This document shows positions 1 to 61,009 of a DNA stretch of 64,000 nucleotides, piece by piece. The stretch comes from Cirrosporium novae-zelandiae (taxonomy: Eukaryota): the NCBI GenBank assembly GCA_026023565.1, contig JAPETS010000022.1, forward strand, positions 248,001 through 312,000. Direction: 5' to 3'. The notes under the pieces were generated by a model that saw only the letters and a program-made list of their open reading frames with translations, made no database searches and was not told the origin of the DNA. The position numbers and the translations under genes were made by a program. Each line of letters starts with the position of its first letter. Position 1 is the first letter of the stretch.

Positions 1-1186
1 TGAGAGACCTAGCATGGCTAGTGAAAAGCCCCAGAAGAGAAAGGCACAGCGATACAAGTAAGGAAACACCCTCATTATGGCCAAAAGATTAAACTAATGC
101 GATTTCGTGCTCTACAGTTTCCAAGCTAATCAAATCCAACTTTCTGGTCCTATTCCGGGAGAATTATATCACCGATATGTCGAATTCAAGCCATTCGTGG
201 CGGGCATGTTCACCTCGCACTCTCTGCGGGGACGTATCTTGAATCGTGCTCTCCACCACCAACACGCCCGCATCTACAACTACGATCGCGACACCATCTA
301 CGGCATGGAACGGTCTCCATCCCCCGATCTAACCCTCCAATTCCTCAAACTCGTCCATTTCGACATCGGCGCCCGAATATTCACCTACGTCATCACACTC
401 GACAGCCTCTGGAGATTTACCGAAACGGGAAAAGAATTCGGCATCGATTTATTGAGCAAACACACCATGCACTCGGACGTCTCAATCTACATTGCCTTCT
501 CCGGCGAATTCTTCATAAGACGTCTCCACCACCGCCACCAAGACCCAGACTCGCAACCCACACACCCCCCCGACGACATCTCAGGCGGGCCCCCCTCGGA
601 CGAACCCCCACAGGACCCAGCCTACTATGAACTAATCATCGACAACGACAGCGGCACCTACCGACCCAACGCAAAGCTCCTCCCCCTCCTAAAATCCTTC
701 CTCCACCCCAACTTCCCCGGCCTCAAAATAAAAACCCTCGACTGCAATTCCGACGCCGAGGAAATGGGCAAGCTGAAAACCGAGCAGCGAGATAGAAAGA
801 AGAAGGAAGGTGGGGGTGGCCGGTTCAAGCAGACCAGCTTCAGCAGCGCCTCCAGCAGCATCAGCTCCAGCGACGAAGAGGATCTGGATCGTCTGGAGGG
901 CGTGGATAGCGGACGGTTTGGAAAGCTAAAGAGGGAGATGCAGGGCAGTGCAACGAAGGATCGGATTCGGGAGTGGGTTGCTAGAGGGGCCGGTGAAGAT
1001 CATGTTGTGGTGGAGAGGGCGGATGGGAAGGTCGAGGAGATTCCTGTGAGTGAGTTGCAGAATGGAAATGCAAATGGAAATGCGAGTGGAGATGCGTCTG
1101 CTTCTGCGTCTGCATCTGCATCCGCCCAAAAGGCCCCAGCGACGGACCAGGACCAGGGCCAGGGAAATAATGAAAAACATGCGTGA
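1..1186 (+). CDS. 3' part of a conserved fungal protein (probably the C2-domain-containing family); 5' end lies outside the window
   Basis: Intron 58-117 (GTAAGG...CTAAT...CAG) joins QRYN|FQANQIQL into the long ORF. Motifs RILNRALHHQH, FTETGKEFGIDLLSKHTMHSD and IDNDSGTYRP are recalled from fungal C2-domain proteins; the C2 domain itself is not in view. Confidence 0.7.
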
Positions 1187-19527: not shown

Positions 19528-20614
19528 CTAAGGAGTCCAGAGCCGGCCTCTGCCGCGTGAGGATTGTGGTCTACCTCCCCGAGGAACGCGTAAAGTACCA
19601 GGAGTAGCATCAGCCTTAGCAGGTTCAGGATTGCGGGAAAATGAGTTTGGGTCAATGGGGTCCTTAATAACCATAGACTTCTTTGGTCCAGGCGGAGTGA
19701 TGCTGCGACGAGGTCTGTGGTTAACTCGATTGCGATTACCACGAGTGAATGGACGTGTCTGGCGGGGTTGACGAGGGTTGAATACAACCTCCTCATCGTC
19801 ATCATCGTCGTCATCGATTGGGACTTTAGGTGGAGGGACCTCTGGCGCTAATTCCGCAACCGATTTTGTCGCAATACCATATTTCTGAGCCCAGCTGCGG
19901 GTCTTTTCGTCATTGCTTAAGAGAATGAGTGTTGTGGGGTCCGTTAGCTTGTTTGCGATATGATGGAGATACCAAAGTGTCGAGTTCAAGAGGGGGCGGA
20001 TCCACCTGGGGGGGAGAGCTGATATTGATGTATCGCGTCTTCGAGGAGAAGAATTTGAATTGCTGGTAGAGCTCGTAGTTGAAGCGCTTGACAAGGGCCT
20101 TGTCTGGTTGGTGGTTATCGAACTGAAAGGTTCTTCATCAACGTCGGGTTTCTGGAAGTTCAACTTATCCAATAGCTGCTGCGATAATTTGTTGACGCCA
20201 GGTATATTAGCTTCTAGCTTAGACTTCACACGGTATTCCGGGAGGAGATGTTTTTGAACTTCTGTCCATTCTGTATAATGAGCCTCTGGACCCTGGAGAG
20301 TAACGGACCGGGTAGAAGCTTTTCCCATGGGGGAACTAGAAGCGCGATCGAGGAAGTCGAGAATATTTCCAGCTTTCACACTGGTAATGGATTTGCCATG
20401 AATGTTATGCTGAAGTTTTTCAAGGGCTAGTGATGGGTTAGCATTGAAATAGATCAGTCTTGCGACGACAGCGATAAGGTATCAACATACTGGGCATAGG
20501 GATATAAAGGGCGATAGAGCCACCGAGCACCCACTTCTCGATTTGGTCAATGCTCTCGATGAGGGTTGACTCATCAGGAATACATAAGTATGTTTTACTA
20601 GATGAAGCCGCCAT
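19528..20614 (-). CDS. PIN-domain protein, Nmd4-like
   Basis: Exons 20614-20491 and 20426-19528; intron 20427-20490 (GTATGT...GCTAAC...TAG). PIN-like CIPDESTL, LYIPMPTLEKL, LILLSNDEKTRSWAQKYGI; C-terminal RGRGRLWTP. Confidence 0.75.
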
Positions 20615-23698: not shown

Positions 23699-23811
23699 TG
23701 GTAGGAGTGGGATTCGAACCCACGCTCCTTTCGGAACTAGAAATCTGAGTAACTTTGGAAGTTAAAGTACGAACTTGAGTCTAGCGCCTTAACCAACTCG
23801 GCCATCCTACC
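23699..23811 (-). tRNA. tRNA-Leu(CAA) with canonical intron (about 23743-23773)
   Basis: Minus strand reads GGTAGGATGGCCGAGTTGGTTAAGGCG-CTAGA-CT-CAA-G-[31 nt]-T-TCTAG-TTCCGAAAGGAGC-GTGGG-TTCGAAT-CCCAC-TCCTACC-A; long variable arm; T-run downstream. Confidence 0.95.
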
Positions 23812-27980: not shown

Positions 27981-30315
27981 TCACATGACGCGACAGACCG
28001 GTCCGTCGCGTTGGGTAGCTTCTTCAGGCTTTTTTAGAGCTTTTAAAGGCTTGGTAGTCTTTGGGATTCGACCCCCCGCTGCCCAGGCTATGAATGCATT
28101 TCCAGCAGGACGCGCCGCCTTTTTGCTTGAACTAACACTGTGACTATCACCTGATTGATGAACTGGGTCCGGGACAATGACAACCCCTGGAGGAATCACA
28201 TTAGCCGGGGGCTTTTTCCTCCGTGGAGGAGGCTCGTCAATAATGAGAGGCTCTGGAGGGGGTAGGGGAACGGGCGGAGGAGGAATAGGTTCTGGAGGTT
28301 TTTCTTCAGGCTTCGGTGGGTCGGGGACAGGCCACATGTGCATGGTGATTGTCCACTCAGGCTCAACCATAGTCTCCCAAACTTGGGGGAGAATGATCTC
28401 GCCGTTAGGTCCAACCAAGTCGTAATGCCCATTGAGGACATGCTGGCCAATTACATCGATATGAACAAAGGCTTGTTTGATCAGTTCTTCCATACCCTAG
28501 ACTTTTGGTTAGCAACCGATATTCCATTTATTTCAGCTGGGTGAATGAGATACTTACCCCCCAGGTATTGCAGAGGTGCCATGGGAAGCTGAACTTTCGG
28601 CCGACTGCATCTTTGAACTTGATGGGCTTCTTTTTCTCTTCAGGGGGCGGAGGAGGAGGGACGGCGGCGGCGGCGGCGGCGGCCTCAGCAGCAGCAGCAG
28701 CAGCAGCCAAGGCAGTAGCAGCTTCAGCCGCTTCTTTAGCTGCTTTTTCGGCAGCTTCAGCTTGGTCTTTGGCTGCCTTTTCGGCAGCTTCGGCTGCGTC
28801 CTTGGCTGCTTTTTCTGCAGCTTCTGCCGCCGCCTTCTTCGCAGCCTCCACTTCATCATTAGCCTTCTTCAGGTCCTCCTCAGCTTTCCGAAGAGCTTCT
28901 TCTTTAGCTTTGTCTGCAGCCTCCTTGGCTTTCTGTGCTTCTTCTTGGGCTTTGTCAGCCGCAGCTTTAATCAAATCTGCTTCGGCTTGAGCTGCAGCAA
29001 TTCTCTTCGCAGCTTCTTCGTTCGCGGCTGCCCTGGCTTCATCAGCTATTCGTTTTGCATTCTCAGCAGCTTCTTTGGCTGCCTGTTCTTTCCGGGCCTT
29101 TTCTTCGGCGGCAGCAGCAGCGGCGGCTTCCTTTCTATCTTGCTCTTCCTTTTGGGCCTTCAGTAACCTCTCAAGACGCCTAACGCCATCTCGTTCAGCG
29201 GCGTCAAGCTCTTCTTTACGCTTCCGAGCTGCCTCAGCCTCTATCCGTTCTTGCTCCTGCTTTTGTCGAAGTAGGAGCTTTTCCAGACGGGCAATTGTCT
29301 TCTCCTCGTCGTCCTCGGGCGGAGGCGGGGGTGGTGGTGGTGGTGGTGCAGGCGCTGGTACAGCAACCGGTGCGGGAGCTGGGGCAGGCGCCGGTGGTGG
29401 AGCTGGTGCGGGAGAAGAAGCAGCGGGAGGTTGAGCTGGTGTGTGCGCTCGTGGAGGAGTAGGTTGGTGATGGTGTTGCGTTAACATGGCTGGGGGTTGA
29501 TAGTATAAGGAAGGGGGCATTCCTGGCATTCCTCCCTGCATCCCCTGCATCCCCTGCATTGCTCCTTGCATTTGATACGCCTGGGCCTGGGCATATTGAT
29601 AGTAAGGGTTTGCCCCAGGGTATCCCATCATGTCTTGTGGCATAGGAGAGCCGCCACGAGAATTAGATTGACGATGCATATGTTGGTAGTAATTTTGAGC
29701 TGCCTGAGCAGGTTGCGATTGCATGTACTGTGGAGGATACCCATATTGTTGACCGTATGGTATCATTTGATTGGGCTGTTGGCCATACTGCATGTAAGAG
29801 TTACCTGAAGACGCACTGTTCGGATAATGCGCAGGAGGGGCATTAGGTGGCCATTGGGCATAGGCCATACGCTCTGGCCCTGCAGGGCCAGGGCCATATG
29901 GCCCGAAATCTTCGGAATCCACGCTTCCGGACGACGTTGGTGGTGTTGTTGGTTGGTGATGTTGCCGGGTCCGTACCCTCTCGGGCGCACCCTGGCGCCG
30001 GGATGAATGGCGTCGGGGTTGGAGATCCACGACTGGCTGAGGATGATGGGATCTCCCACCAGGCCTTGACGCTGAATCCTCTGGGTGGAGGTCGTCTGGG
30101 TACACCACCCTCCAGCCCTCTTCTTCGTCTATTTCCTCGGGATCTTCGGGAGCCGAGTCTGAATAGCTCTCGCTTCCCCCTTGAGGGGATATTTGTACGC
30201 CGTCTTCGTCCGTCCAGGACGAACGGTCAGAGTTATCAGGCTCTGGCGCCACCGGGGTACGGTGCCTCGTGACGTGGTGGTAAGTGGGTCGTCGCCTTGT
30301 AGTCATGTTAGTCAT
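27981..30315 (-). CDS. Fungal protein with P/Q-rich region, Ala/Glu/Lys coiled coil, ubiquitin-like domain and terminal CaaX
   Basis: Exons 30315-28558 and 28496-27981; intron 28497-28557 (GTAAGT...GCTAAC...TAG) joins KPIKFKDAVGRKFSFPWHLCNTWG|GMEELIKQAF...IILPQVWE; ends CRVM*. Start codon uncertain. Confidence 0.85.
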
Positions 30316-33978: not shown

Positions 33979-35346
33979 TTACTTGGCTGCCTCAGAGTCA
34001 CGGTCAAGGAGCTCTTGTGCTGCAATGATCTCGGCCTTGGCCTTTTCGCCCAATTTGCCCCGCGACGCTGTTTCCTGGATAATCTGTTTGAGTTTAGAAG
34101 TGGCTAGCTCGTTCAGTTTTATTACAGTCTCCTTGCTCATAAGAGGCAATTCATCCTCTGCACGCGTCTCAGATGCCGGCGACTTCTTGCCGTTGGGTGG
34201 TTTTATCTCAAGTAAGGATGAGGCGGCCTGCAGCCCAAGCTGTTAGCATAAATGACATGGAAAAATTGGGATAGAAAGTGATAGATAACGAAAGACATGC
34301 AAAAGGTAAGACGATATAAAGGCGATTTTATATCTGAATAATCAAAAGTACCATTGACTTTTAAGATTAAATCATGACACATGTCGTCAAATAATGCTTC
34401 TTGCCGTTGCTATCATGTCTCAAACCCCACCAATCTGCAGAGGCCACCAAAGATGGCTTGTGCACGGAACTTGCAAGGAATGGTATATCAAGTACTTACG
34501 AGTTTCAGGCCATAATAACCTCTGATATAGTCATCGCAGAGCTCAATACTTCGACAGAATCGTCTTATTGCCTCGTTATAAAGAGACTCTCGTGTTTCCA
34601 AGGGTTCAAGGTCACGAGCGTTTGCTGAGAGAAATTTGAGCTCTCCAAGCCGAGCGTGTATCTGGTAATTCAATTGGTATTTCGAACAACGGACATAATT
34701 GGATAGATATCTTACATTCCAGGCATTTGGGACGATAAGAAGGGCCTCCTCAATGCTGAAAATGGCCTGGGCCATAAAGCCTTGGGACACGTAGAGGTCT
34801 GAGAGCTCGCACCAAGCCTCAGCATCAGTTGGACTCGCATCAAGAAGTTTCACAAGAGCGGCAATGGCATCGGCCGGCCTTGACAAGGAGCGGAGAAGAG
34901 CAATTCGCCGCTTAGCAACGGGCTATCGAAATGTTAGTTTGGAGCCCAAGAAAATGCGCAGTCTATCCCACCATATTAACTGGATTCTCAGATAGCGTCT
35001 GCTCATACTCCTTCAGCACTTCCAAGAGCGCGGATTGGTTTTCTGCAATGGCTTCTTGATATATTCCTCGAAGTCCCATAACGTGCTCGTTTGTCGCACC
35101 AAACCGTTTTGTCAGTTTTTGCAAGCACAGATGGGCAGACCTATCATCTCCAGTTCGCAGACATGCTAGAAGGAGGTTTTCATACGACAACCATAGCTCG
35201 GATGTCTCCGGGGTCGAAAGTAATGGTAAAGATAGATTTGCGAATATTGATTCCTGGGTTTTGAGCAGCAATGGTGCCTGCTGTGCAACACGTAGTGCTG
35301 TAGACTGTGATAGATGGCTCGGAATCATCCCTGAAGCCATAGCCAT
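33979..35346 (-). CDS. emc2: ER membrane protein complex subunit 2 (TPR protein, Oca3-like)
   Basis: Introns 34923-34971, 34662-34715 and 34228-34499 give YENLLLACLRTGD...NPVNMPVAKRRIALLRS...PTDAEAWCELSDLY...RFCRSIELCDDYIRGYYGLKLAASSLL...AAQELLDRDSEAAK*. Confidence 0.9.
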
Positions 35347-35854: not shown

Positions 35855-38800
35855 ATGTGAAGCTCCATGTTTCTAGAGGCCATTTCACGACTGACATGGA
35901 AATAGGTTTGAAAAATCCCTGTACGACCTCATTCGAGGTTTGCGGAACCATAAGGGCAATGAGAGGGCATACATACAAAATAGCTTGAAGGAATGTAGGA
36001 CTGAAATCAGAAGTCAGGATATGGGTTCGTGCTGCATCAACACCAGGCGTCACTCCATCACTTACTCAGCGGGCATCAGATCTCAAAGCCACGGCCCTGC
36101 TTAAGCTCATATACCTGGAAATGTTTGGGCATGATATGTCCTGGGCTTCATTCAATGTTCTAGAAGTAATGTCGTCCGCGAAATATCTGCAGAAGAGGGT
36201 TGGCTACCTGGGAGCCGTTCAGAGTTTCAGGCCGGACACAGAAGTGTTGATGCTGGCAACGAATCTTCTGAAAAAAGTATGTATTCCTTGGTTCGAGGGT
36301 GTTGCTGGTGCAACGAGTTGATCGGATATTTCAGGATGTCACTTCATCCTTGCCTTTGGTCATGGCTTTGCCCTTGGGTGCCCTTCCACACATCAGTACG
36401 CCCTCTTTAGCATTATCCTTAGTAAGTGATCTGCTTCCCAGACTTTCTCATTCGCAAGCCGTAATCCGCAAGAAAACCGTTGCTACATTGTTTCGCATGG
36501 CTCTGGTCTACCCCGAGACCTTGCGGCCTGCTTGGCCCAAAATAAAAGACCGCTTAATGGATGTGGACGAGGACCCAAGCGTGACGGCGGCAGTCGTAAA
36601 TGTGGTGTGCGAACTAGGCTGGAGAAGACCCCAAGACTTCCTTTCTCTAGCTCCAAGATTATTTGACCTCCTTGTGGGTGGGAGCAACAACTGGATGGCC
36701 ATCAAGATCATCAAGCTTGTAAGCAGTTGCGCCACCAGCTTCTAGTATTAGCCTAACATCAACAGTTTGCTACATTAACACCCCTGGAGCCTCGGCTTAT
36801 ACGAAAACTACTTCCGCCGCTTACTAACCTCATAAGGACGACGACTGCTATGTCGTTGCTATATGAGTGCATTAATGGAATTATCCAAGGAGGAATCCTT
36901 GAAGCATCAGATAGCGGACGGGAGGGGGACGAGATTGCTAGTCTTTGTGCAGAAAAGCTTCGAGGCATGATTGTCGTCGAGGGCGACCCGAACCGTATGT
37001 TTCAGAGTAGCCCATTAAGAGATCGTCTAACGTCATGTAGTGAAATATGTTGCTTTGCTTGCTCTTAATAAGATCGTGTTGACTCGACCCTTTCTCGTAT
37101 CAACGCAACAGGATGTTATAATGGATTGCTTAGATGATTCAGATATTTCCATACGCATCCAAGCCTTGGATCTTGTGATTGGCATGGTAAATAGTGATAA
37201 TTTACAGCCTGTTGTTGAACGTCTTATCACTCAATTAAGACTTTCTCCTACCGTATCAGCTATTGATGACCCAATGAATGATCGGGGACCAAGGCCATTG
37301 GAACCCTCTGCAGATTCCGAGGAGGAAGACCCCGAGGAGTCATTAAGAATCTCTGGACGAAACATCGACGAACGACCAGCTTTACCCGACAGCTACCGTC
37401 TTGATGTTATCTCAAAGATATTGGATATTTGCTCCCGAGACATGTACACCAATGTCACAGACTTTGAGTGGTACATCAAGACTTTGGTGGATCTTGTTCG
37501 TTTAGTACCAGCGCCTAGTGCATTAGAAAGTATAGAGGGGTTGCCTGTTAACCCGCTTGCCGATGAGGTTATACCTCCGAAAGATGATGTATCATCCAAC
37601 ATCGGCTCTGAACTACTTAACGTTGCTGTCCGGGTCAAAAGTTTAAGGTCAGAGGCAACTCGAGCAGCTGAGGCCCTGGTCTTGGTTGATAATCGTCCAA
37701 ATCTCTTTCCGCCCACAGGTAATGGCGGCCAAAATGTCTTGAAATCAGCCGTATGGATTGTCGGTGAATACGCAGAATACCTATTGAATCCACAAGGTGT
37801 CTTATCATCCCTCCTGCACCCGTCGACTATGCAACTTCCGGCCGAAATTCTCATCTTCTGCATTCAAGCTGCGCCTAAGATTTTTTCTCGCATAGTCCAT
37901 ATGAATGCCAGCCCTTGGTCTCCTGAACGTGAAACTATGTTGAATCTGACTTTGAAGAGGCTAATCACCTTCTTGGAAACCCTTTCCACGCATCCCAACC
38001 TTGAAGTTCAAGAACGCTCAATTGGGTTTCTTGAATACATGCGTCTAGCTGCCGAATCTCTCTCATCCGAAGGTCGAACTGGGAACGAGCCACCGTTATT
38101 ACTGACCTCCGTGCTGCCCTCCCTCTTCTCTGGGCTCGAACTTAATCCAGTAGCGCCTGGCGCCCAAAGAAAAGTGCCTATACCAGAAGGCTTAAATCTA
38201 GATGCACCCATCCATTCTGATCTTGCCGGACTCCTCCAAACCTCGGAATTTGATACGGAGTTCTCCTCTGGACGCGAGGATTTCGATGACTTCTACTATA
38301 AACCACCCCCGTCTGCTCCTACATATGCAGAGGATACTCCTGCGGCGGAAAGACTCAGAATACCAGATTCCTATCAATCCCAGACCTCGCCGATTACCTC
38401 CTCAGAAGCTGCCGAACTTATTGAGCGAAGACGAGCAGAACGGAGAGAACGAAATAAAGACGACCCTTTCTTCCTCGGAAAAGAAGATGCAGATTCCACG
38501 CCATCTACATATCACAACATTCTCAGTTCCGGCAACGGTGACGTTGACATAGATTCAATACCGATTATGGCTCTGGATCTTGGGCCCAGCAGACAGGAAG
38601 GCATGGCACGCCCGATACGCAAGAAAGCCCGAAAGAAGGTGGACATTACTTTCGACGAAACTCTTCCTGATAGTGGCGCCTCCTCTGCACAGCACTCTGG
38701 TACAGCCACACCCTCTCATCCAGCTACCCATAAGAGTAAAACGAAGCGCCCCAAAGCTCTTCTCCAGGTCGATTCATCGGCGCTTGGGGGAATCTCCCTC

Positions 38801-49306: not shown

Positions 49307-50940
49307 ATGGCTGGTCTCCCCCAAATCCCTCCTCTAAACCTGGATAATTATGAATGGCGACCCTCTCCATCAGACCCCTTGCTCTATCAGCGACGTTCCT
49401 GCGGCTCAGAAGCTACTGTAGGTCTCAAGGAACCTAACGAAAGAGGGGAATACGATCTCTACTTTGGCTGCCCCGTTCAGTTCCATCAAGGTGTCTCGAC
49501 CCTGGGGGATCTTGAACGACATGTGAAAACGACGTGGAAGAAATTCCGCTTCAGTCACCCGGAGGTCACATATACTCCTGGGTACGACGATCAGGTAACT
49601 TGTCTTGTTCAATACCGCATCCCGAAGAATCCAGAGGAGGTTGAAAGGTGGGCTGAAGAAACTGTGGTTGTGCATACAACTGACAAGAACTACACCGACC
49701 TCCGCCAGGAACTCGAGGAAAAGCGCAAGGCAGCTGAAGTCAGTGAAGCATCCAAGGGATTCACCATTCATATTGCAGCCCCCGTAGCAAAGTCTGACTC
49801 CCTCGACGGCAAGGATGTCCTGTTCATCTTCCATCTTAACCATATAACCACAGATGGTATGGGAATCCGCGTTCTTGTTGGACAATTCTTCCGTGATCTC
49901 GCTCTTCAATTATCAGGTGGTGGGGATTTCTCTATCGAGGGTCTCCAATGGGCTGATACGGTCAAAAACCTTCCTCCCGCTTATCTGGCTGTCCGTAAAC
50001 CTGATATCGATCTAAATGGCCCCAAGTACGAGCAGATTCTATATGCCTCGGTTGGTGTCATGATGCAACTTCCTGTAAGCATCAAATCCCAGTCCCCTCA
50101 CCTTTTTATTTCCGAGTATCTTAATTGATCCAACCCCAGGCGTCCCACTCACTCGTCCCCAAAGAGTCCGGGCCTTCCTACTCCCGCTCAGCCTTCGCGC
50201 CCTTCACCCTTGAGGAAACCAAAGCCGTCATTAGCGCAGTAAAAACTAAACTCGGCCCCACCTTCACAATCACCCACCTCGCCCAAAGCGCCGTCTTCAT
50301 CGCCCTACTACTCTTCAACCCGGTTCCAGAATCTGCCCCTGAAGAGACAAGCTACATCTCATCCTCTGTGATGGACGGCCGACGCTTTCTACTCGAACCC
50401 CACAATGAGAAAACCCCCTTCTCAACAATTTGCCAGTGCTCAGCTACAATCGCGTATCCCGCTATCAAGAGCTACAACATAACCAAATTCTCCAGCAAGA
50501 AAGAAATAAACGAAGCTCTAGCCAAGGGCTCCGAAATAGCAAAACAGGGCTACGATTCCTGGATTAGTATGCCGGAAAGCCTGACATCATCAGCCTCAGT
50601 CCTCGAAATGGTCGCCATGCTGCTTTCAACAACTCCGATGGGAGAATCTACAGCCAAACTTGCCGCACCTCGATTTACTTCTGACGGGATCGACGAACGG
50701 TTCATTCAACCTACGGGCGAGGGAAAGAATAGTGAAAAGGTTTTTGATATCAAGGATATTCTTTTCTCTGTCAACCAGATCTCGGCATTCCCATCTGTTC
50801 GCCTGCATTCGTTCCGCGGGTCATCAAGATTATCAATTGATTATAATCAAGGGTGGTTTGATGATGCGTATATGCAGGAATACCTAGATTGTATCAAGCA
50901 GCTGATGGTTGGGTTTGCAGATATGGAGTTGCGGAACTAA
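49307..50940 (+). CDS. Tri3-like (trichothecene 15-O-acetyltransferase family) CoA-dependent acyltransferase
   Basis: Exons 49307-50074 and 50140-50940 (522 aa). N-terminus YQRRSCGSEATVG...YDLY...RFSHPE and HxxxD motif NHITTDG resemble Fusarium Tri3; also TITHLAQSA, MDGRRFL, SDG. Confidence 0.85.
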
Positions 50941-51494
50941 AGGACTGGTTTAGAAGAGACTAGGAATGATGACGATAGAAATGAATGAATCGAACAAAGG
51001 AGACGCCCAAGACCACAACGTAGATTGATGATTCATTTTATTGTCCGCATGTACTGTACACCGACATAGGTTAGAATGAAGAAATACATGCAATTGAGGT
51101 ATCCAAACATACAGGCGCATTCTTGCCTACATACTTGGACAAAAATCTCTACTATAAAAGTATAGACTATATCTATTTGTCTAAATGAAAAAAGTATAGT
51201 TACTACGTACCTAGGTACCCTTGGGAGGAACCGCGGACGGAGTTTTTAATAGTCGGAGCTTGCGATTAACCTTCGGATAACTAGAAACGGAGTCTTAGGG
51301 CTTTTGTTGAATCCAATTTCGTCCAATTGGCCAACCACTTTCACCAGAGGCCAGACGTGCTCATGAATTTCCGTTCATGACTTTATATAGGGTTAGATGC
51401 TTATGAACTTGGTTGTATTGTCACCGTAATGAAAAAAATGGGTCTTATTCCATAAATCTGATCTCTTTAACAACCAACCAGCGATAAGCGATTA

Positions 51495-51631
51495 TCCTCC
51501 ATGGCGCGTGAGTAAAATCCCACAAAGTATTGTAGAACGTCTTCTAACCGGCAAAAAGAATTGGCTAGCGCGTCCGGCTGTTAATCCGACAGAAAACCGG
51601 GAGGTTCGTGGTTCAAGCCCACGTGGTGGAG
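51495..51631 (+). tRNA. tRNA-Asn(GTT) with canonical intron (51584-51595) and an extra 51-nt spliceosomal-like insertion in the D-arm (51508-51558)
   Basis: Without both insertions: TCCTCCA-TG-GCGC-AATTGGCTA-GCGC-G-TCCGG-CT-GTT-AA-CCGGG-AGGTT-CGTGG-TTCAAGC-CCACG-TGGTGGA-G. B-box intact; oligo-T runs downstream. Confidence 0.88.
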
Positions 51632-51641
51632 TTGTATGATA

Positions 51642-51665
51642 TTTTTGATATTTTTTGATATTTTT
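51642..51665 (+). terminator. RNA polymerase III oligo-T terminators for tRNA-Asn
   Basis: Three T-runs of 5-6 nt (TTTTTGATATTTTTTGATATTTTT) starting 11 nt after the discriminator base. Confidence 0.7.
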
Positions 51666-51978
51666 ATATATAAATGTATATGGGAGAGGAATGAGAAGGG
51701 ACTTGAAAAAGTCTAGGAAATTTTATCAGAAGAAGCTCTATAGCGTCCAGACCATCTTATTGTAAATGCCAACCAGAATTAATTACATGTTCTGTGTAAC
51801 CTGGTACAATCCGTGTTATCAAAGTTCATGATGGTATCGTAATCTATCAGCTCTCGGCCGGATACATTTTTCAAAATCTAGCAATTGTTGAATAAGTAAC
51901 TGACATTTATAACATCTCCCCTCTAAATTTATTCTCCTAGCCTTATTTGTGGCAGATTCATTATGCTTCTACCAGAGC

Positions 51979-54900
51979 ATGCCTTCCCTCCCACGCCCCC
52001 TCCCTAAAAAATGGTCACTGACTATAACTCTCCCAAAATCGACTTTTCCTGCCCGAGTCTCTCCGGCAGAACAGTCTCTCTACCTGAAACGATGCACCGA
52101 TGATCTTTATGCCTGGCAGCGTCGGGAACGACCTGCTGACAGAACCTTTACTCTTCATGATGGTCCACCCTATGCGAATGGAGATCTACACATCGGTCAT
52201 GCTTTGAACAAGATCTTGAAGGATATTATGTGCCGCTATCAGCTTACGCAAGGCAAAAGGGTGGACTTTGTACCTGGATGGGATTGTCATGGATTACCAA
52301 TTGAACTAAAGGCGTTAAAACAAGATGATAATGGCACATATAAACCCCAATTTGTACGGACAATAGCACGGGAATTGGCGGAAAAGACTGTTGAAAAACA
52401 AAAGGCTTCTTTTCGATCATGGGGAATAATGGCAGATTGGGATCATTCGTGGAAGACAATGGATAAGGAATTCGAGATGAGACAGCTAGATGTGTTTAAA
52501 GAGATGGTTGATAGAGGATTGATACATCGCCGGTTTAAGCCGATCTTCTGGTCTCCCTCCACGCGAACAGCGCTTGCTGAGGCGGAGGTGGAATATCATG
52601 AAAACCACGAGTCACAGGCTGCATATATTAGGTTTCCGATCAAAAAAGTTTCAGATGCGCTGACCCGTATACCGAGACTTGATATCTACAATCTTTGGGC
52701 CGTCATCTGGACCACAACACCATGGACTATACCAGCAAATAGGGCCATTGCTATTAATTCTCGTATTAACTACTCGATTGTAGATACCCCAGACTATGGC
52801 CAACTAATTGTTGCCGATTCAAGACTTTCTGAGTTTCTTGCGGAAACAAACCTCGCTGAGGGTTCCACCGTGCTTGCACACTCCATCAAAGGCTCCGAAC
52901 TTTTAGGAGTCGGTTTTGTGAATCCATTCCGCGGAGTAGAAAAAAGGAAATGGTCACAACCTTTCTTGCACGGTGATTTCGTTTCCGAGGAGTCCGGAAC
53001 TGGCCTGGTACACTGTGCACCAGGTCACGGTATGGAAGATTATGAACTCTGCCTTAGAAACGGAATAGAAGCTTTTGCCCCTGTTGACGATCGTGGCTGT
53101 TTCACAAAGGCAGTGATCGAACAGAACCCTTCCGCCGATATTTCGAAATTCAATGATATTATTGGCAAAGAGGTTATATCGGAGGGAAACCGGGCGATTC
53201 TACGGCGCTTGGAAGATTCAAAGTATCTGCTGCTTACTCGCAAATATGTCCACAAGTACCCCTATGACTGGCGTTCCAAGAAGCCTCTGATCATCCGAGC
53301 CACCGAGCAATGGTTTGCTGATTTAAGCGACATCAGAGACAAAGCCATCGAATCTTTAACGGCTGTCCATTTTTTCCCCGACACTGGTCGAGCTCGACTG
53401 GAAAGTTTTGTCAAGAGCCGTACGGAGTGGTGTATATCTCGCCAACGAGCATGGGGTGTTCCTATTCCTGCACTTTACGATCGCGACACGGGAGAGTCTG
53501 TGCTAACAAAGTCCAGCGTTGAGCATATCATCAAGATGATCAATGAACGTGGAATTGATGCCTGGTGGAACGACAGTCAATATGATCCCGCGTGGACGCC
53601 CCCTGAACTACGCGAGAAAGATGGCAAGAAAAAATACCGACGAGGCACTGACACAATGGACGTCTGGTTTGATAGCGGTACCAGCTGGACACACATGCGC
53701 GACTCTCTTTCAGGCACTACTCCCCAAGCAGACGTTTACCTCGAAGGCAGCGACCAACATCGTGGATGGTTCCAGTCCTCCCTTCTGACGCGCATAGCGG
53801 AACAGGAATCTCAGTCCAAGGCCATAACCCCTTTTGTGGCCCCCTTTAAAACTCTGATAACTCATGGCTTCACGCTCGACAGCAACCTCCGTAAGATGTC
53901 CAAGTCTATCGGGAACACCATTGCCCCCGAGGATATAATAAGAGGGTCCCTTCTTCCAACCCTCAAAACAAAAAAGAACAAACGTGCAAACCCTAACGAG
54001 CGCGGAAAGGCTGTCCACGACTCACTTGGTCCGGATACTTTGCGTCTCTGGGTGGCCAGCAGTGATTACACTCATGACGTAGTCATTGGGGTTCCGGTGT
54101 TGAAGTCCATCCGTACAAATCTACACAAATATCGCGTCTCTCTCAAGCTTATCCTAGGTATACTATCTGATTTCGATCCCAAGGATCCCAAGCACCTCCT
54201 CGCATATTCGGAGCTTACATTTATCGACCGTATCGCGCTCTTCCATGTCTCTCACCTCTCTGCTGTTGTCCTTCATCATTACAGCGAACACAGATTCTAC
54301 AAAGCAGTCAATGCCATAACAGCCTATCTAAGCACGTATTTTTCGGGTATTTACATAGAAGCGATCAAAGATCGGCTGTATACCTCGAGCCCAAGCGGGG
54401 TTCCCAGACGTGCAGCCCAGACGGTCATATGGCACATTCAAGAGAGGCTACTGGCAATGCTGGCGCCCATATGCCCAATACTTGCAGAGGAAGCATGGGA
54501 ACATATGCCCTCGGCGGTGAAAATCGCATCACAACCACCAGGCCAAAGAATCATGGAGCCCACACCTCCCGAATGGGCGAACCGAGTCCTGAGGGCTGAC
54601 CTATCCGTCCTCATGGCGGTAAACACGGCCATCAAGACTGCACAGGAATCTGTCCGAAGCCAAAACCTCATGGGCTCGTCCCTTCAGTCCTACGTGCACC
54701 TGTCACTTTCCCCCAAGCTGATGCCCCTATTCCAAAAATACTCACACGAACTAGAAGACCTATTCGTGGTAAGCGGCATCAGCATAGCCTCACTGGACAG
54801 CCCCTCGGACAAAGCACACACGACAACCATAACCGAAACCGCAGACTGGTTCAAAAAGGAAGAGTTTCACGCCCACAGGTACGAGGAGAGCAGCAGCAAA

Positions 54901-55149
54901 ACCCAATCCGAAGAGACCGAAAAAACCGAAGAAAGCGGTGATGGGGAACGGGGCCTGGCATATGTGTACAAGCCCCCACAGCACAAGTGCATCAGGTGCT
55001 GGAGGTACGTGGCCGAAAAGGAAGACACGCTGTGCAAGCGATGCGAGGACGTTGTAGACGAGCTGCGGGAAAGCAAACCTGAGATTTTTGAGTCAGGAGA
55101 GGAGGACGAGGACGGTGCTAATGCTAACGCTGCTGCTGTGGCTGCTTAG
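51979..55149 (+). CDS. ism1: Mitochondrial (bacterial-type) isoleucyl-tRNA synthetase
   Basis: LHDGPPYANGDLHIGH, PGWDCHGLPIE, WTTTPWT, GTGLVHCAPGHG, WCISRQRAWGVP, EGSDQHRGWFQS, KMSKS and C-terminal CIRC...CKRC. First in-frame ATG at 51979; an upstream exon is possible. Confidence 0.95.
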   Translation: MPSLPRPLPKKWSLTITLPKSTFPARVSPAEQSLYLKRCTDDLYAWQRRERPADRTFTLHDGPPYANGDLHIGHALNKILKDIMCRYQLTQGKRVDFVPGWDCHGLPIELKALKQDDNGTYKPQFVRTIARELAEKTVEKQKASFRSWGIMADWDHSWKTMDKEFEMRQLDVFKEMVDRGLIHRRFKPIFWSPSTRTALAEAEVEYHENHESQAAYIRFPIKKVSDALTRIPRLDIYNLWAVIWTTTPWTIPANRAIAINSRINYSIVDTPDYGQLIVADSRLSEFLAETNLAEGSTVLAHSIKGSELLGVGFVNPFRGVEKRKWSQPFLHGDFVSEESGTGLVHCAPGHGMEDYELCLRNGIEAFAPVDDRGCFTKAVIEQNPSADISKFNDIIGKEVISEGNRAILRRLEDSKYLLLTRKYVHKYPYDWRSKKPLIIRATEQWFADLSDIRDKAIESLTAVHFFPDTGRARLESFVKSRTEWCISRQRAWGVPIPALYDRDTGESVLTKSSVEHIIKMINERGIDAWWNDSQYDPAWTPPELREKDGKKKYRRGTDTMDVWFDSGTSWTHMRDSLSGTTPQADVYLEGSDQHRGWFQSSLLTRIAEQESQSKAITPFVAPFKTLITHGFTLDSNLRKMSKSIGNTIAPEDIIRGSLLPTLKTKKNKRANPNERGKAVHDSLGPDTLRLWVASSDYTHDVVIGVPVLKSIRTNLHKYRVSLKLILGILSDFDPKDPKHLLAYSELTFIDRIALFHVSHLSAVVLHHYSEHRFYKAVNAITAYLSTYFSGIYIEAIKDRLYTSSPSGVPRRAAQTVIWHIQERLLAMLAPICPILAEEAWEHMPSAVKIASQPPGQRIMEPTPPEWANRVLRADLSVLMAVNTAIKTAQESVRSQNLMGSSLQSYVHLSLSPKLMPLFQKYSHELEDLFVVSGISIASLDSPSDKAHTTTITETADWFKKEEFHAHRYEESSSKTQSEETEKTEESGDGERGLAYVYKPPQHKCIRCWRYVAEKEDTLCKRCEDVVDELRESKPEIFESGEEDEDGANANAAAVAA

Positions 55150-59318: not shown

Positions 59319-61009
59319 TCAATTTAAATCCCAGCACATATCCCAGTGTCCGCCGCGTTTAGCAAATCCCAAACTGGCGATCCATTTCCTGACCTCGCAT
59401 CGTCCCAGTTCGTCAGCCTCACATCCATTCAACGGCACGACCCGGTCATTAATCAATATCCTCACCAACTCTGATCCCGTTTCCAACCCTGTGCCTTCGT
59501 CACACCGCATCTTTTCAAAATATGCCCGACCCGCGAACGGGACGGCCCACGCGGCCGAGAAACCATCGCTATCGGTTGCGTCTGTGATGCTGGTGTTTGA
59601 TAGGGGCGAGGTGTTGTTGAAGAGGTTCAGGGCCGAGAAGATGGGAATCATGTCATTGTCGTGCGAGAAATCGGCATACAGGCGGACGTTGGGACCTAAA
59701 GGGAAGGTCGAGGGATCAGAGTCGAGAGTTTTGTTGACCGACGTGTGATCCTTGACCGGTCGGTCCGTCATTCTCGAGATAAGCTCGTTGACGAACCCGA
59801 CACCTTGGGTCGGTCCTAGGGGATTGCCACCTCCATATCCGTAATATTTTCCTAGAGATTGGTAGTAGTTGTATCCTTCCCATTCCGAGCCAGTGAACAA
59901 CGAACAAAACGGCGAGATGCTGCCCGAGGGAGAAGCGATGCTTGCGAATGGACAAAGATCCATGAGATAGATTGTTTGCTCGAGTGAGAGGTTAGCATTT
60001 GGGAGAGCGCGGTTTAGACGCGAGGTTATGGGGGGAGCAAAGGTTGAAAGAAAAGTTTGTTGGGCAACAGCACCAACGGTATTAATTTCGTGGTCCTCGA
60101 AAGCGGTACAGAGGCCATGACTGAGTGTATTGTTCTCCCCGTCCGTTTCTGGAATAACGAGGATGGGGTAGGGGTAGGCATCATCTTTGGAATATGGTGA
60201 GGACTGTTTAGCAGCATGATACCCTTGGGAAAATTTCAGAGCAGATTCGATAACACGGTTACTACCCCCCGCACGTATGAATGGGGTAAAATTCAAGGCA
60301 ATATCCTGGTAACGGCTGAAGAATTTGATGCCCGAATGAACCATTTGATTCTCCCCAAAGACGGTCAGCCGGTCAGCTCCCAGATTGTATTTATAGTTAG
60401 CGAGAAAAGCATATCTTCCAGAAAACCTATTGCGCTGGACGTTGGAGATAATCTGCTGGATTGTTTCATTGTAGAGTATGGTTTTGGTGCTGGTGGGATC
60501 TCGACCTCCATGACGGGAAAGGAGCTGAACAAAGGAAATTCGACAGCCGTCTGGGAGCTGGGTGGATATCTCCGAAGGCACAGCAAAGTAAGGAGAGTAT
60601 TGACCCCAAAGATGAGATGTTTCTGGTTGGCATTGATACCCATCGTCAATGGTGTCGCAAGCACTTGTATCCCCATGCTTGGAGAAAAGATTAGAAACCC
60701 TAGATGGGTCCTCGCATCAGTATCAGGTCGCATATTCCCTCAGGATTGTAGGGCAACATACCGAAAAAGTAAACCCAGAAAGATCAGCATCAAGCCCATC
60801 AGTGTCCAGGTCGAGCACACGCCTGAAGACACACCAGGCCTAGACGGATATCCATAGTCACCGACCTGGGAAATTGAAGAATCACGTCTCGCGGAAGGGG
60901 CAAACTCTAGAGTTCTGTCGCTTTGATCATTTTGGTCATTGTGGTCATGTTGAGTATTCTGGTTGTTCTGGTCTGAGACCAATAACGCTTGGCGTTCAGA
61001 AAAGCTCAT
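59319..61009 (-). CDS. Histidine acid phosphatase / 3-phytase (PhyA-like) with N-terminal type II membrane anchor
   Basis: Exons 61009-60762 and 60699-59319; intron 60700-60761. CDTIDDGYQC...HLWGQYSPYF, RHGGRDP, ADFSHDND, VRILINDRVVPL; TM segment WTLMGLMLIFLGLLF after about 65 residues. Confidence 0.92.

Follow-up and report, generated by a model that had tools for sequence, protein, structure and literature searches.

A candidate spliceosomal intron in the D-arm of a tRNA-Asn gene of Cirrosporium novae-zelandiae, with a second gene of the same design on a metagenomic contig

Splicing of tRNAs is described as spliceosome-independent both in a 2025 paper (PMC12530127) and in a 2026 review (PMC13149111), and the former assigns spliceosomal introns to Pol II transcripts. 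Spliceosomal introns have been reported from other structural RNA genes. Fungal U6 genes carry up to four of them, with canonical signals and unconserved sequence, although for most species it has yet to be validated that they are spliced (PMC5855946). Ectopic spliceosomal introns are also described in the rDNA of lichen fungi, and in yeast a 57-nt intron of this kind was spliced out of Pol I transcripts (PMC8527467); the same paper cites Bhattacharya et al. 2000 for rDNA spliceosomal introns of ascomycetes, mostly lichen-forming ones. The tRNA introns that lie outside the canonical site, as in the red alga Cyanidioschyzon merolae, are described as removed by the tRNA endonuclease (PMC3728597). 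The word stem 'spliceosom' does not occur in two reviews of tRNA introns and tRNA genes (PMC4090602, PMC13578239). A search of the open-access full-text literature returned no tRNA gene with a natural spliceosomal intron, in agreement with an earlier note on this DNA, which knew of none described. An artificial yeast tRNA gene with the actin intron was reportedly spliced by the pre-mRNA pathway (Kohrer, Vogel and Domdey, EMBO J 1990).

Here we describe a tRNA-Asn(GTT) locus of Cirrosporium novae-zelandiae, at 51495-51631 on the plus strand of a 64,000-nucleotide stretch of genomic DNA (the window), whose D-arm is split by an mRNA-type insert. The insert resembles the introns of U6 genes in S. 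pombe, Rhodotorula and others, and also those of U1, U2 and U5, in that it lies in a short structural RNA gene, interrupts a critical conserved part of the RNA, and combines canonical signals with an unconserved interior. U6 is a Pol III gene, and T-run terminators together with a B-box suggest the same for tRNA-Asn. However, the host here is a tRNA and not a spliceosomal RNA beside the catalytic centre, so that an origin by a reverse-splicing accident is less obvious. Also unlike U6, the tRNA-Asn intron splits the internal promoter (the A-box), and the gene has a second intron of the endonuclease type. With the ascomycete rDNA introns it shares an ectopic position, a length of about 50-60 nt, and a non-Pol II structural RNA gene of a filamentous ascomycete as host, whereas theirs is a Pol I rRNA and no second splicing system is needed there in one small molecule. 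The tRNA introns of C. merolae, nucleomorphs and archaea are alike in lying outside position 37/38, in occurring more than once per tRNA gene, and in causing standard scanners to miss the gene, but they are cut by the endonuclease at motifs resembling a bulge-helix-bulge (BHB), whereas the tRNA-Asn insert fails the BHB pattern and carries mRNA splice signals. The construct of Kohrer and colleagues, as reported, has in common with the present gene a Pol III pre-tRNA as a spliceosome substrate in a fungus; theirs was engineered, with the intron in the anticodon loop, and ours is natural and in the D-arm. Within the scope of the open-access literature, tRNA would be a new class of host for ectopic spliceosomal introns in structural RNA genes.

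The native locus was not recognized as a tRNA by ARAGORN, with or without its intron mode, nor by the Rfam tRNA model, at the gathering threshold or at E <= 10, as the earlier note had expected of standard scanners. That note had also proposed a tRNA scan with and without the insert. Using ARAGORN, we found that tRNA-Asn(GTT) was called only after in-silico removal of 51508-51558, as predicted from the letters. When the intron at 37/38 was removed as well, a classical 74-nt class-I cloverleaf resulted, in which a T.T at acceptor pair 4-69 is the single mismatch. The positions that the earlier note gave for locus and insert proved exact, and its description of the arms, paired save for one acceptor T.T and with the 37/38 intron kept, holds for this cloverleaf. 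The boundaries of the D-arm insert cannot be slid, because the bases flanking each junction differ; for the 37/38 intron, placement one base leftward is equally possible. As read from the sequence, GACAG of that 12-nt intron could base-pair with CTGTT in the anticodon loop. An expanded D-loop that needs no splicing was considered and rejected, the native sequence being accepted by neither scanner used (ARAGORN and Rfam).

Rebuilding of a tRNA by excision is rare in this DNA. Among 1,315 segments of the form GTRNGT..AG (35-120 nt, both strands of the window), removal of a single one gave a junction-spanning tRNA, and that one was the D-arm insert. When any GT..AG of 30-120 nt was allowed, 38,083 segments yielded ten tRNA calls, two at the Asn locus and eight at a tRNA-Leu gene, with none outside these two real tRNA loci; the eight came from deleting pieces of the intron or flank of tRNA-Leu itself. 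This tRNA-Leu(CAA), at 23699-23811 on the minus strand, is the sole match of the Rfam tRNA model in the window (54.9 bits). It is an ordinary gene whose canonical intron measures about 31-34 nt, T5 runs lie at +4 and +14, and ARAGORN missed it in its default bacterial mode.

The tRNA-Asn locus is intergenic: a plus-strand ORF ends 555 nt before it, and a plus-strand gene for a mitochondrial-type isoleucyl-tRNA synthetase (IleRS, 51979-55146) has its ATG 348 nt after it. A 27-nt word (51026-51052) in the flank 3' of the upstream gene is repeated several times in the genome, because three extra 31-nt contigs of a DNA sequencing run (X1) cover it, at depths of 350-1150 against 347 for single copy. 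The features of the locus, of a second gene introduced below and of the mRNA introns used for comparison are collected in the table.

Table. Features of the tRNA-Asn locus, of the second gene (contig L002, in contig coordinates) and of likely mRNA introns in the window
Feature	Positions	Strand	Description and basis
tRNA-Asn exon 1	51495-51507	+	13 nt; acceptor 5' strand, positions 8-9, D-stem 5' strand, 5' half of A-box; ARAGORN cloverleaf after excision
Candidate U2-type GT-AG intron (spliceosomal type)	51508-51558	+	51 nt, between tRNA positions 13 and 14; excision test, signals, no BHB
5' splice site GTGAGT	51508-51513	+	sequence; donor type also found among likely window introns
Branch-point motif CTAAC	51544-51548	+	putative branch A 51547, 11 nt before intron end
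3' splice site AG	51557-51558	+	sequence
tRNA-Asn exon 2	51559-51584	+	D-loop (3' half of A-box), D-stem 3' strand, anticodon stem 5' strand, loop with GTT; ARAGORN
Canonical tRNA intron at 37/38	51585-51596	+	12 nt; 74-nt cloverleaf after removal
tRNA-Asn exon 3	51597-51631	+	anticodon stem 3' strand, variable loop, T-arm, acceptor 3' strand, discriminator G; ARAGORN
Three T5/T6/T5 runs, Pol III terminator-like	51642-51665	+	first run 11 nt past the tRNA-Asn gene
L002 exon 1	996-1008
L002 D-arm insert	1009-1060		52 nt; GTAAGT, CTAAT with A 12 nt from end, AG
L002 exon 2	1061-1148		includes 27-nt canonical intron, ARAGORN i(39,27) after excision
L002 T runs			three T5 runs, first 7 nt past the gene
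L002 TATATT	-34 to -28
Likely window introns	36277-36334, 36719-36765, 36995-37040, 50075-50139, 29459-29513	+	picked by eye
Likely window introns	28497-28557, 20427-20490, 34923-34971, 60700-60761	-	picked by eye

The D-arm insert has the sequence features of a U2-type intron in its donor, its branch motif and branch distance, its terminal AG and its length, and all the signals that the earlier note had read are present as it stated them. That note had also likened the insert to the mRNA introns of the window, and the likeness stands against nine likely introns: the insert measures 51 nt and has its branch A 11 nt before its end, against 46-65 nt and a branch motif 9-17 nt before the end in the nine. 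These nine are predictions only, chosen by eye from 213 overlapping and noisy ORF-joining GT..AG rows for a consensus-like donor and for CTAAC, CTGAT or TTGAT 9-17 nt before the end. For a 51-mer with fixed ends and the composition of the window, the chance of carrying all three signals was estimated at about 1e-5, where the signals were defined as any of 12 donor hexamers of our choosing, an AG end, and a CTRAY motif whose A precedes the end by 8-20 nt. The earlier note saw no Pol III-stopping TTTT inside the insert, and none is there: the longest T run is 2, as it is in the insert of the second gene. Neither a target-site duplication nor terminal inverted repeats are visible at the junctions 51508 and 51558. 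A multi-copy introner-like element in this genome was considered and dropped, as the insert is single-copy at >=80% likeness in the X1 contigs, where a filter may hide short pieces.

The earlier note had proposed scanning for tRNA halves parted by an intron-like segment, and such a scan was run on metagenome contigs with a pattern in which GTRNGT, a gap of 30-60 nt and AG part the D-arm. Two loci were returned. One of them (L001) was rejected as a GC-rich chance match, with no tRNA call from any of 30 segments. The other, on a 2,152-nt contig (L002), is a second tRNA-Asn(GTT), at 996-1148, with an insert at the identical 13/14 site and a CTAAT branch motif; it is the one true match in the whole metagenome collection. 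ARAGORN calls a tRNA there only after excision, and 1 of 32 GTRNGT..AG segments of the contig yields one. The mature sequence folds into a perfect cloverleaf. The search pattern imposed GT and AG on this gene. It left free the fourth base of the donor, the branch motif with its spacing, the full cloverleaf, the canonical intron and the terminator, and it constrained the length of the insert only through the 30-60-nt gap. No match to this pattern, or to one for exon 2 alone, turned up in 596 Gb of prokaryotic genomes or in viral contigs; these collections are free of fungi and serve as a chance control only. Both insert-bearing genes stand between two coding genes on the same strand, with the next ATG 348 nt (window) or 299 nt (L002) downstream, a coincidence being possible with n = 2.

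With two genes at hand, removal of the insert by a machinery other than the spliceosome could be weighed. The tRNA endonuclease might cut at an ectopic site, as in Cyanidioschyzon and nucleomorphs, or a nuclease-ligase pair might act, in which case GT..CTAAC..AG would be coincidental. Such ectopic tRNA introns do exist in the red alga (PMC3728597). At the sole possible junctions of our inserts, however, we found no bulge-helix-bulge: the central helix forms 1 of 4 pairs in the window gene and 2 of 4 in L002. The endonuclease route of ectopic tRNA introns is therefore not available to the D-arm insert, and its identity as a BHB intron was rejected on this ground and on its site at 13/14 in place of 37/38. 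Both genes moreover carry the full set of splice signals, at a chance of about 1e-5 each, and their branch motifs lie 11 and 12 nt from the intron end, as in the likely mRNA introns of the window. We regard non-spliceosomal removal as very improbable.

Next, we considered how the gene may be transcribed. Three T5-T6 runs lie within 45 nt after both genes, in the window a T5 at +11 followed by T6 and T5, and in L002 starting with a T5 at +7, so that oligo-T terminators are in place; the ordinary tRNA-Leu of the window likewise has a T5 at +4. Runs of five or more T occur at 2.17 per kb on the plus strand of the window, but triples within 45 nt are found only six times on that strand (64 kb), and the sole triple of L002 is the one behind its tRNA. 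The B-box region, at about 51610-51620 in exon 3 by its consensus, is intact in both genes. The A-box is not: the insert cuts it between bases 6 and 7 (TGGCGC / AATTGG). With the A-box interrupted in the DNA itself, initiation by Pol III is uncertain. Transcription by Pol III is pointed to by the T-run triples, the lack of a long T run inside the inserts and the intact B-box region.

Transcription by Pol II from a host gene would be an alternative. The tRNA could lie within the 5' leader of the downstream gene or be reached by read-through from upstream, and the intron would be removed co-transcriptionally, after which RNase P and RNase Z would free a tRNA or a tRNA-like RNA; or the intron might serve the mRNA only. 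The position of both genes, downstream of one same-strand ORF and 299-348 nt upstream of the start of another, fits such an arrangement, as does a TATATA about 110 nt upstream in the window, and the split A-box speaks against a standard type-2 Pol III promoter. The T-run triples argue the other way, beginning 7-11 nt past each gene, as terminators do at tRNA-Leu, and being so rare on the strand, and the B-box is intact in both genes. The TATATT of L002 also speaks against a Pol II host. Its position is presumably the place of Pol III-type upstream TATA elements. We judge a Pol II host to be quite unlikely, though a serious alternative, and Pol III to be the better candidate for both genes.

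We then compared the two genes with each other. After removal of both introns they align without gaps, with 57 of 74 positions identical and 17 different. The differences fall almost wholly in the stems: of 21 pairs, 13 are shared and 8 differ in both partners, which makes 16 differences, and there is no one-sided change. Seven of these eight are standard pairs in both genes, the eighth being the T.T of the window gene against G-C in L002. Of 32 unpaired positions 31 are identical, and a purine swap in the T-loop makes up the seventeenth difference. At pairs 6-67 and 7-66 both bases differ between the genes, and each 13-nt exon 1 matches the 3' acceptor strand of its own gene. Without the donor hexamer and the AG, the interiors of the two inserts show no significant likeness (the observed score is reached by 38 of 500 shuffles), and the likeness of the 5' flanks is no better than that of shuffles. 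The two genes together display the pattern of ectopic introns, with a common site across taxa, conserved signals and an unconserved interior (n = 2). This is what would be expected of selected tRNA genes with an intron whose signals are kept and whose interior is free, but the covariation could instead reflect selection on the tRNA-Asn family of each species, with the insert-bearing copies as recent offshoots (n = 2).

The hosts are far apart, in different classes of filamentous ascomycetes. The IleRS of the window is no more than 61% identical to any other among 5.8 billion proteins. Its named matches at 57-60% are from Acarospora, Pleopsidium, Sarea, Glutinoglossum and Aspergillus, and the top matches bear Lecanoromycete, Geoglossomycete and Eurotiomycete names; the best-scoring named relative is a lichen-forming fungus, with others near the top. 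Because identity stops at 61% and the matches are spread over Pezizomycotina classes, the host organism seems to have no close sequenced relatives in that protein collection. The contig of the second gene is Dothideomycete-like, as judged from a neighbouring Rtc1/WDR59-like gene with 62-69% identity to Dothideomycete proteins. The neighbouring genes of the two loci differ, so the loci are not syntenic. Since a Dothideomycete-like contig has the same design, the arrangement is presumably either old or recurrent in filamentous ascomycetes; an old shared intron and two gains at the same bond both fit the two genes.

Other copies of tRNA-Asn were surveyed in the X1 run (36 Mb of contigs), which alone among the runs compared contains this stretch of DNA and may be its source. 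A 34-kb contig holds a tRNA-Asn-like paralog in which the D-stem runs straight into the D-loop, without an insert. Over 51562-51631 (70 nt), the window copy differs from it by 10 letters and 4 gaps, and in the 5' part by one base of the acceptor 5' strand (A, where the paralog has G, at position 7) and one D-loop base (T against C). A 33-nt word of the T-arm and acceptor (51594-51626) was found at twice single-copy depth, and a 21.6-kb contig starts within it. At least one further tRNA-Asn-like copy is thus present, represented by its 3' part only. As the contigs carry paralog copies, the window gene is not the sole tRNA-Asn gene, and with an insert-free paralog in the same genome the window copy is possibly dispensable. 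In two DNA runs of the same study from other organisms (X2 and X3), the matches were pieces of only 33-42 nt, one of them from the AT-rich stretch 51632-51673 and all others from within the IleRS gene, and no orthologous tRNA locus was among them.

These copies bear on the possibility that the gene is a pseudogene, dead on arrival. An intron or intron-like piece would have entered one tRNA-Asn copy, for example by reverse splicing and reverse transcription, and left it silent or without a tRNA product; L002 would be an independent insertion at a favoured site, its intact stems reflecting youth or gene conversion from live paralogs. The insert-free paralog, the T.T in the acceptor stem of the window gene, the split A-box and the blindness of Rfam and ARAGORN to the native locus are all in keeping with this, as are the single further case from the metagenome scan and the lack of synteny between the loci. 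However, a pseudogene origin needs two insertions at the identical phosphodiester bond in two fungal classes, both of which kept donor, branch and acceptor. It must also account for the perfect cloverleaf and the 31 of 32 identical unpaired bases of L002, and for the absence of any one-sided stem change between the copies. Exon 1 is matched to its own acceptor strand at 6-67 and 7-66, and upkeep of this match by conversion across the insert is unlikely. With its 10 letters and 4 gaps, the window copy is also no fresh duplicate of the insert-free paralog. We consider a pseudogene unlikely.

The reading that we favour, with somewhat more confidence than doubt, is that 51495-51631 is a live nuclear tRNA-Asn(GTT) gene whose product requires both the spliceosome and the tRNA endonuclease. 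At the level of sequence this reading is well supported, and the second gene strengthens it. Such a gene would contain two kinds of intron, one U2-type spliceosomal in the D-arm and one endonuclease-type at 37/38. Pol III would start by means of the intact B-box and upstream elements and end at the T5/T6 runs, giving a precursor of about 160 nt. U1 would pair with GUGAGU, the branch A at 51547 would attack, AG at 51558 would be used, and the spliceosome would link C13 to A14, restoring the D-stem and a loop with A14 and G18-G19. The L-shape would form only once the D-arm had been rebuilt, and RNase P, RNase Z and the SEN endonuclease would act afterwards. Since SEN, RNase P and RNase Z measure the L-shape, the spliceosomal step is predicted to precede removal of the 12-nt intron by SEN and Trl1. 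Several points weigh against this reading. The 5' exon would be short, 13 nt and a leader, and the transcript carrying it would be uncapped. In the window copy there is the T.T at 4-69, a paralog of it lacks the insert, the A-box is split and the loci are non-syntenic; and for L002, the single true match in the metagenome, GT and AG were demanded by the pattern.

A wider reading is tentative, and we hold it to be possible rather than probable: that these genes belong to an old, widespread and unannotated class of ascomycete tRNA genes with a spliceosomal intron in the D-arm. In such a class, two splicing machineries would act in fixed order on a 74-nt RNA, tRNA supply would be coupled to spliceosome capacity, and censuses based on scanners would be undercounting. 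If the favoured reading of the window gene is true, a natural spliceosome-dependent tRNA breaks the division between tRNA splicing and the spliceosome, and tRNA joins the short list of non-mRNA hosts, which comprises U6, other snRNAs and rRNA. It would also demonstrate that an intron can persist within an internal Pol III promoter, and offer a clean system for studying the spliceosome at work on a very small, uncapped Pol III transcript. For tRNA annotation it would reveal a blind spot, in that ARAGORN and the Rfam tRNA model both miss such a gene.

The inserts of the two genes were also examined for folding. That of the window does not fold significantly (z = -0.59; 53 of 200 shuffles fold as well). 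The L002 insert (1009-1060), in contrast, forms a strong hairpin of -13 kcal/mol (z = -4.36), and none of 200 shuffles folds as well. In this hairpin an internal AACUUAC is paired to the donor GUAAGUU and sequesters the 5' splice site, a fold that the window intron does not have. The hairpin might be the remnant of a structured introner-like element, or it might be a regulatory feature.
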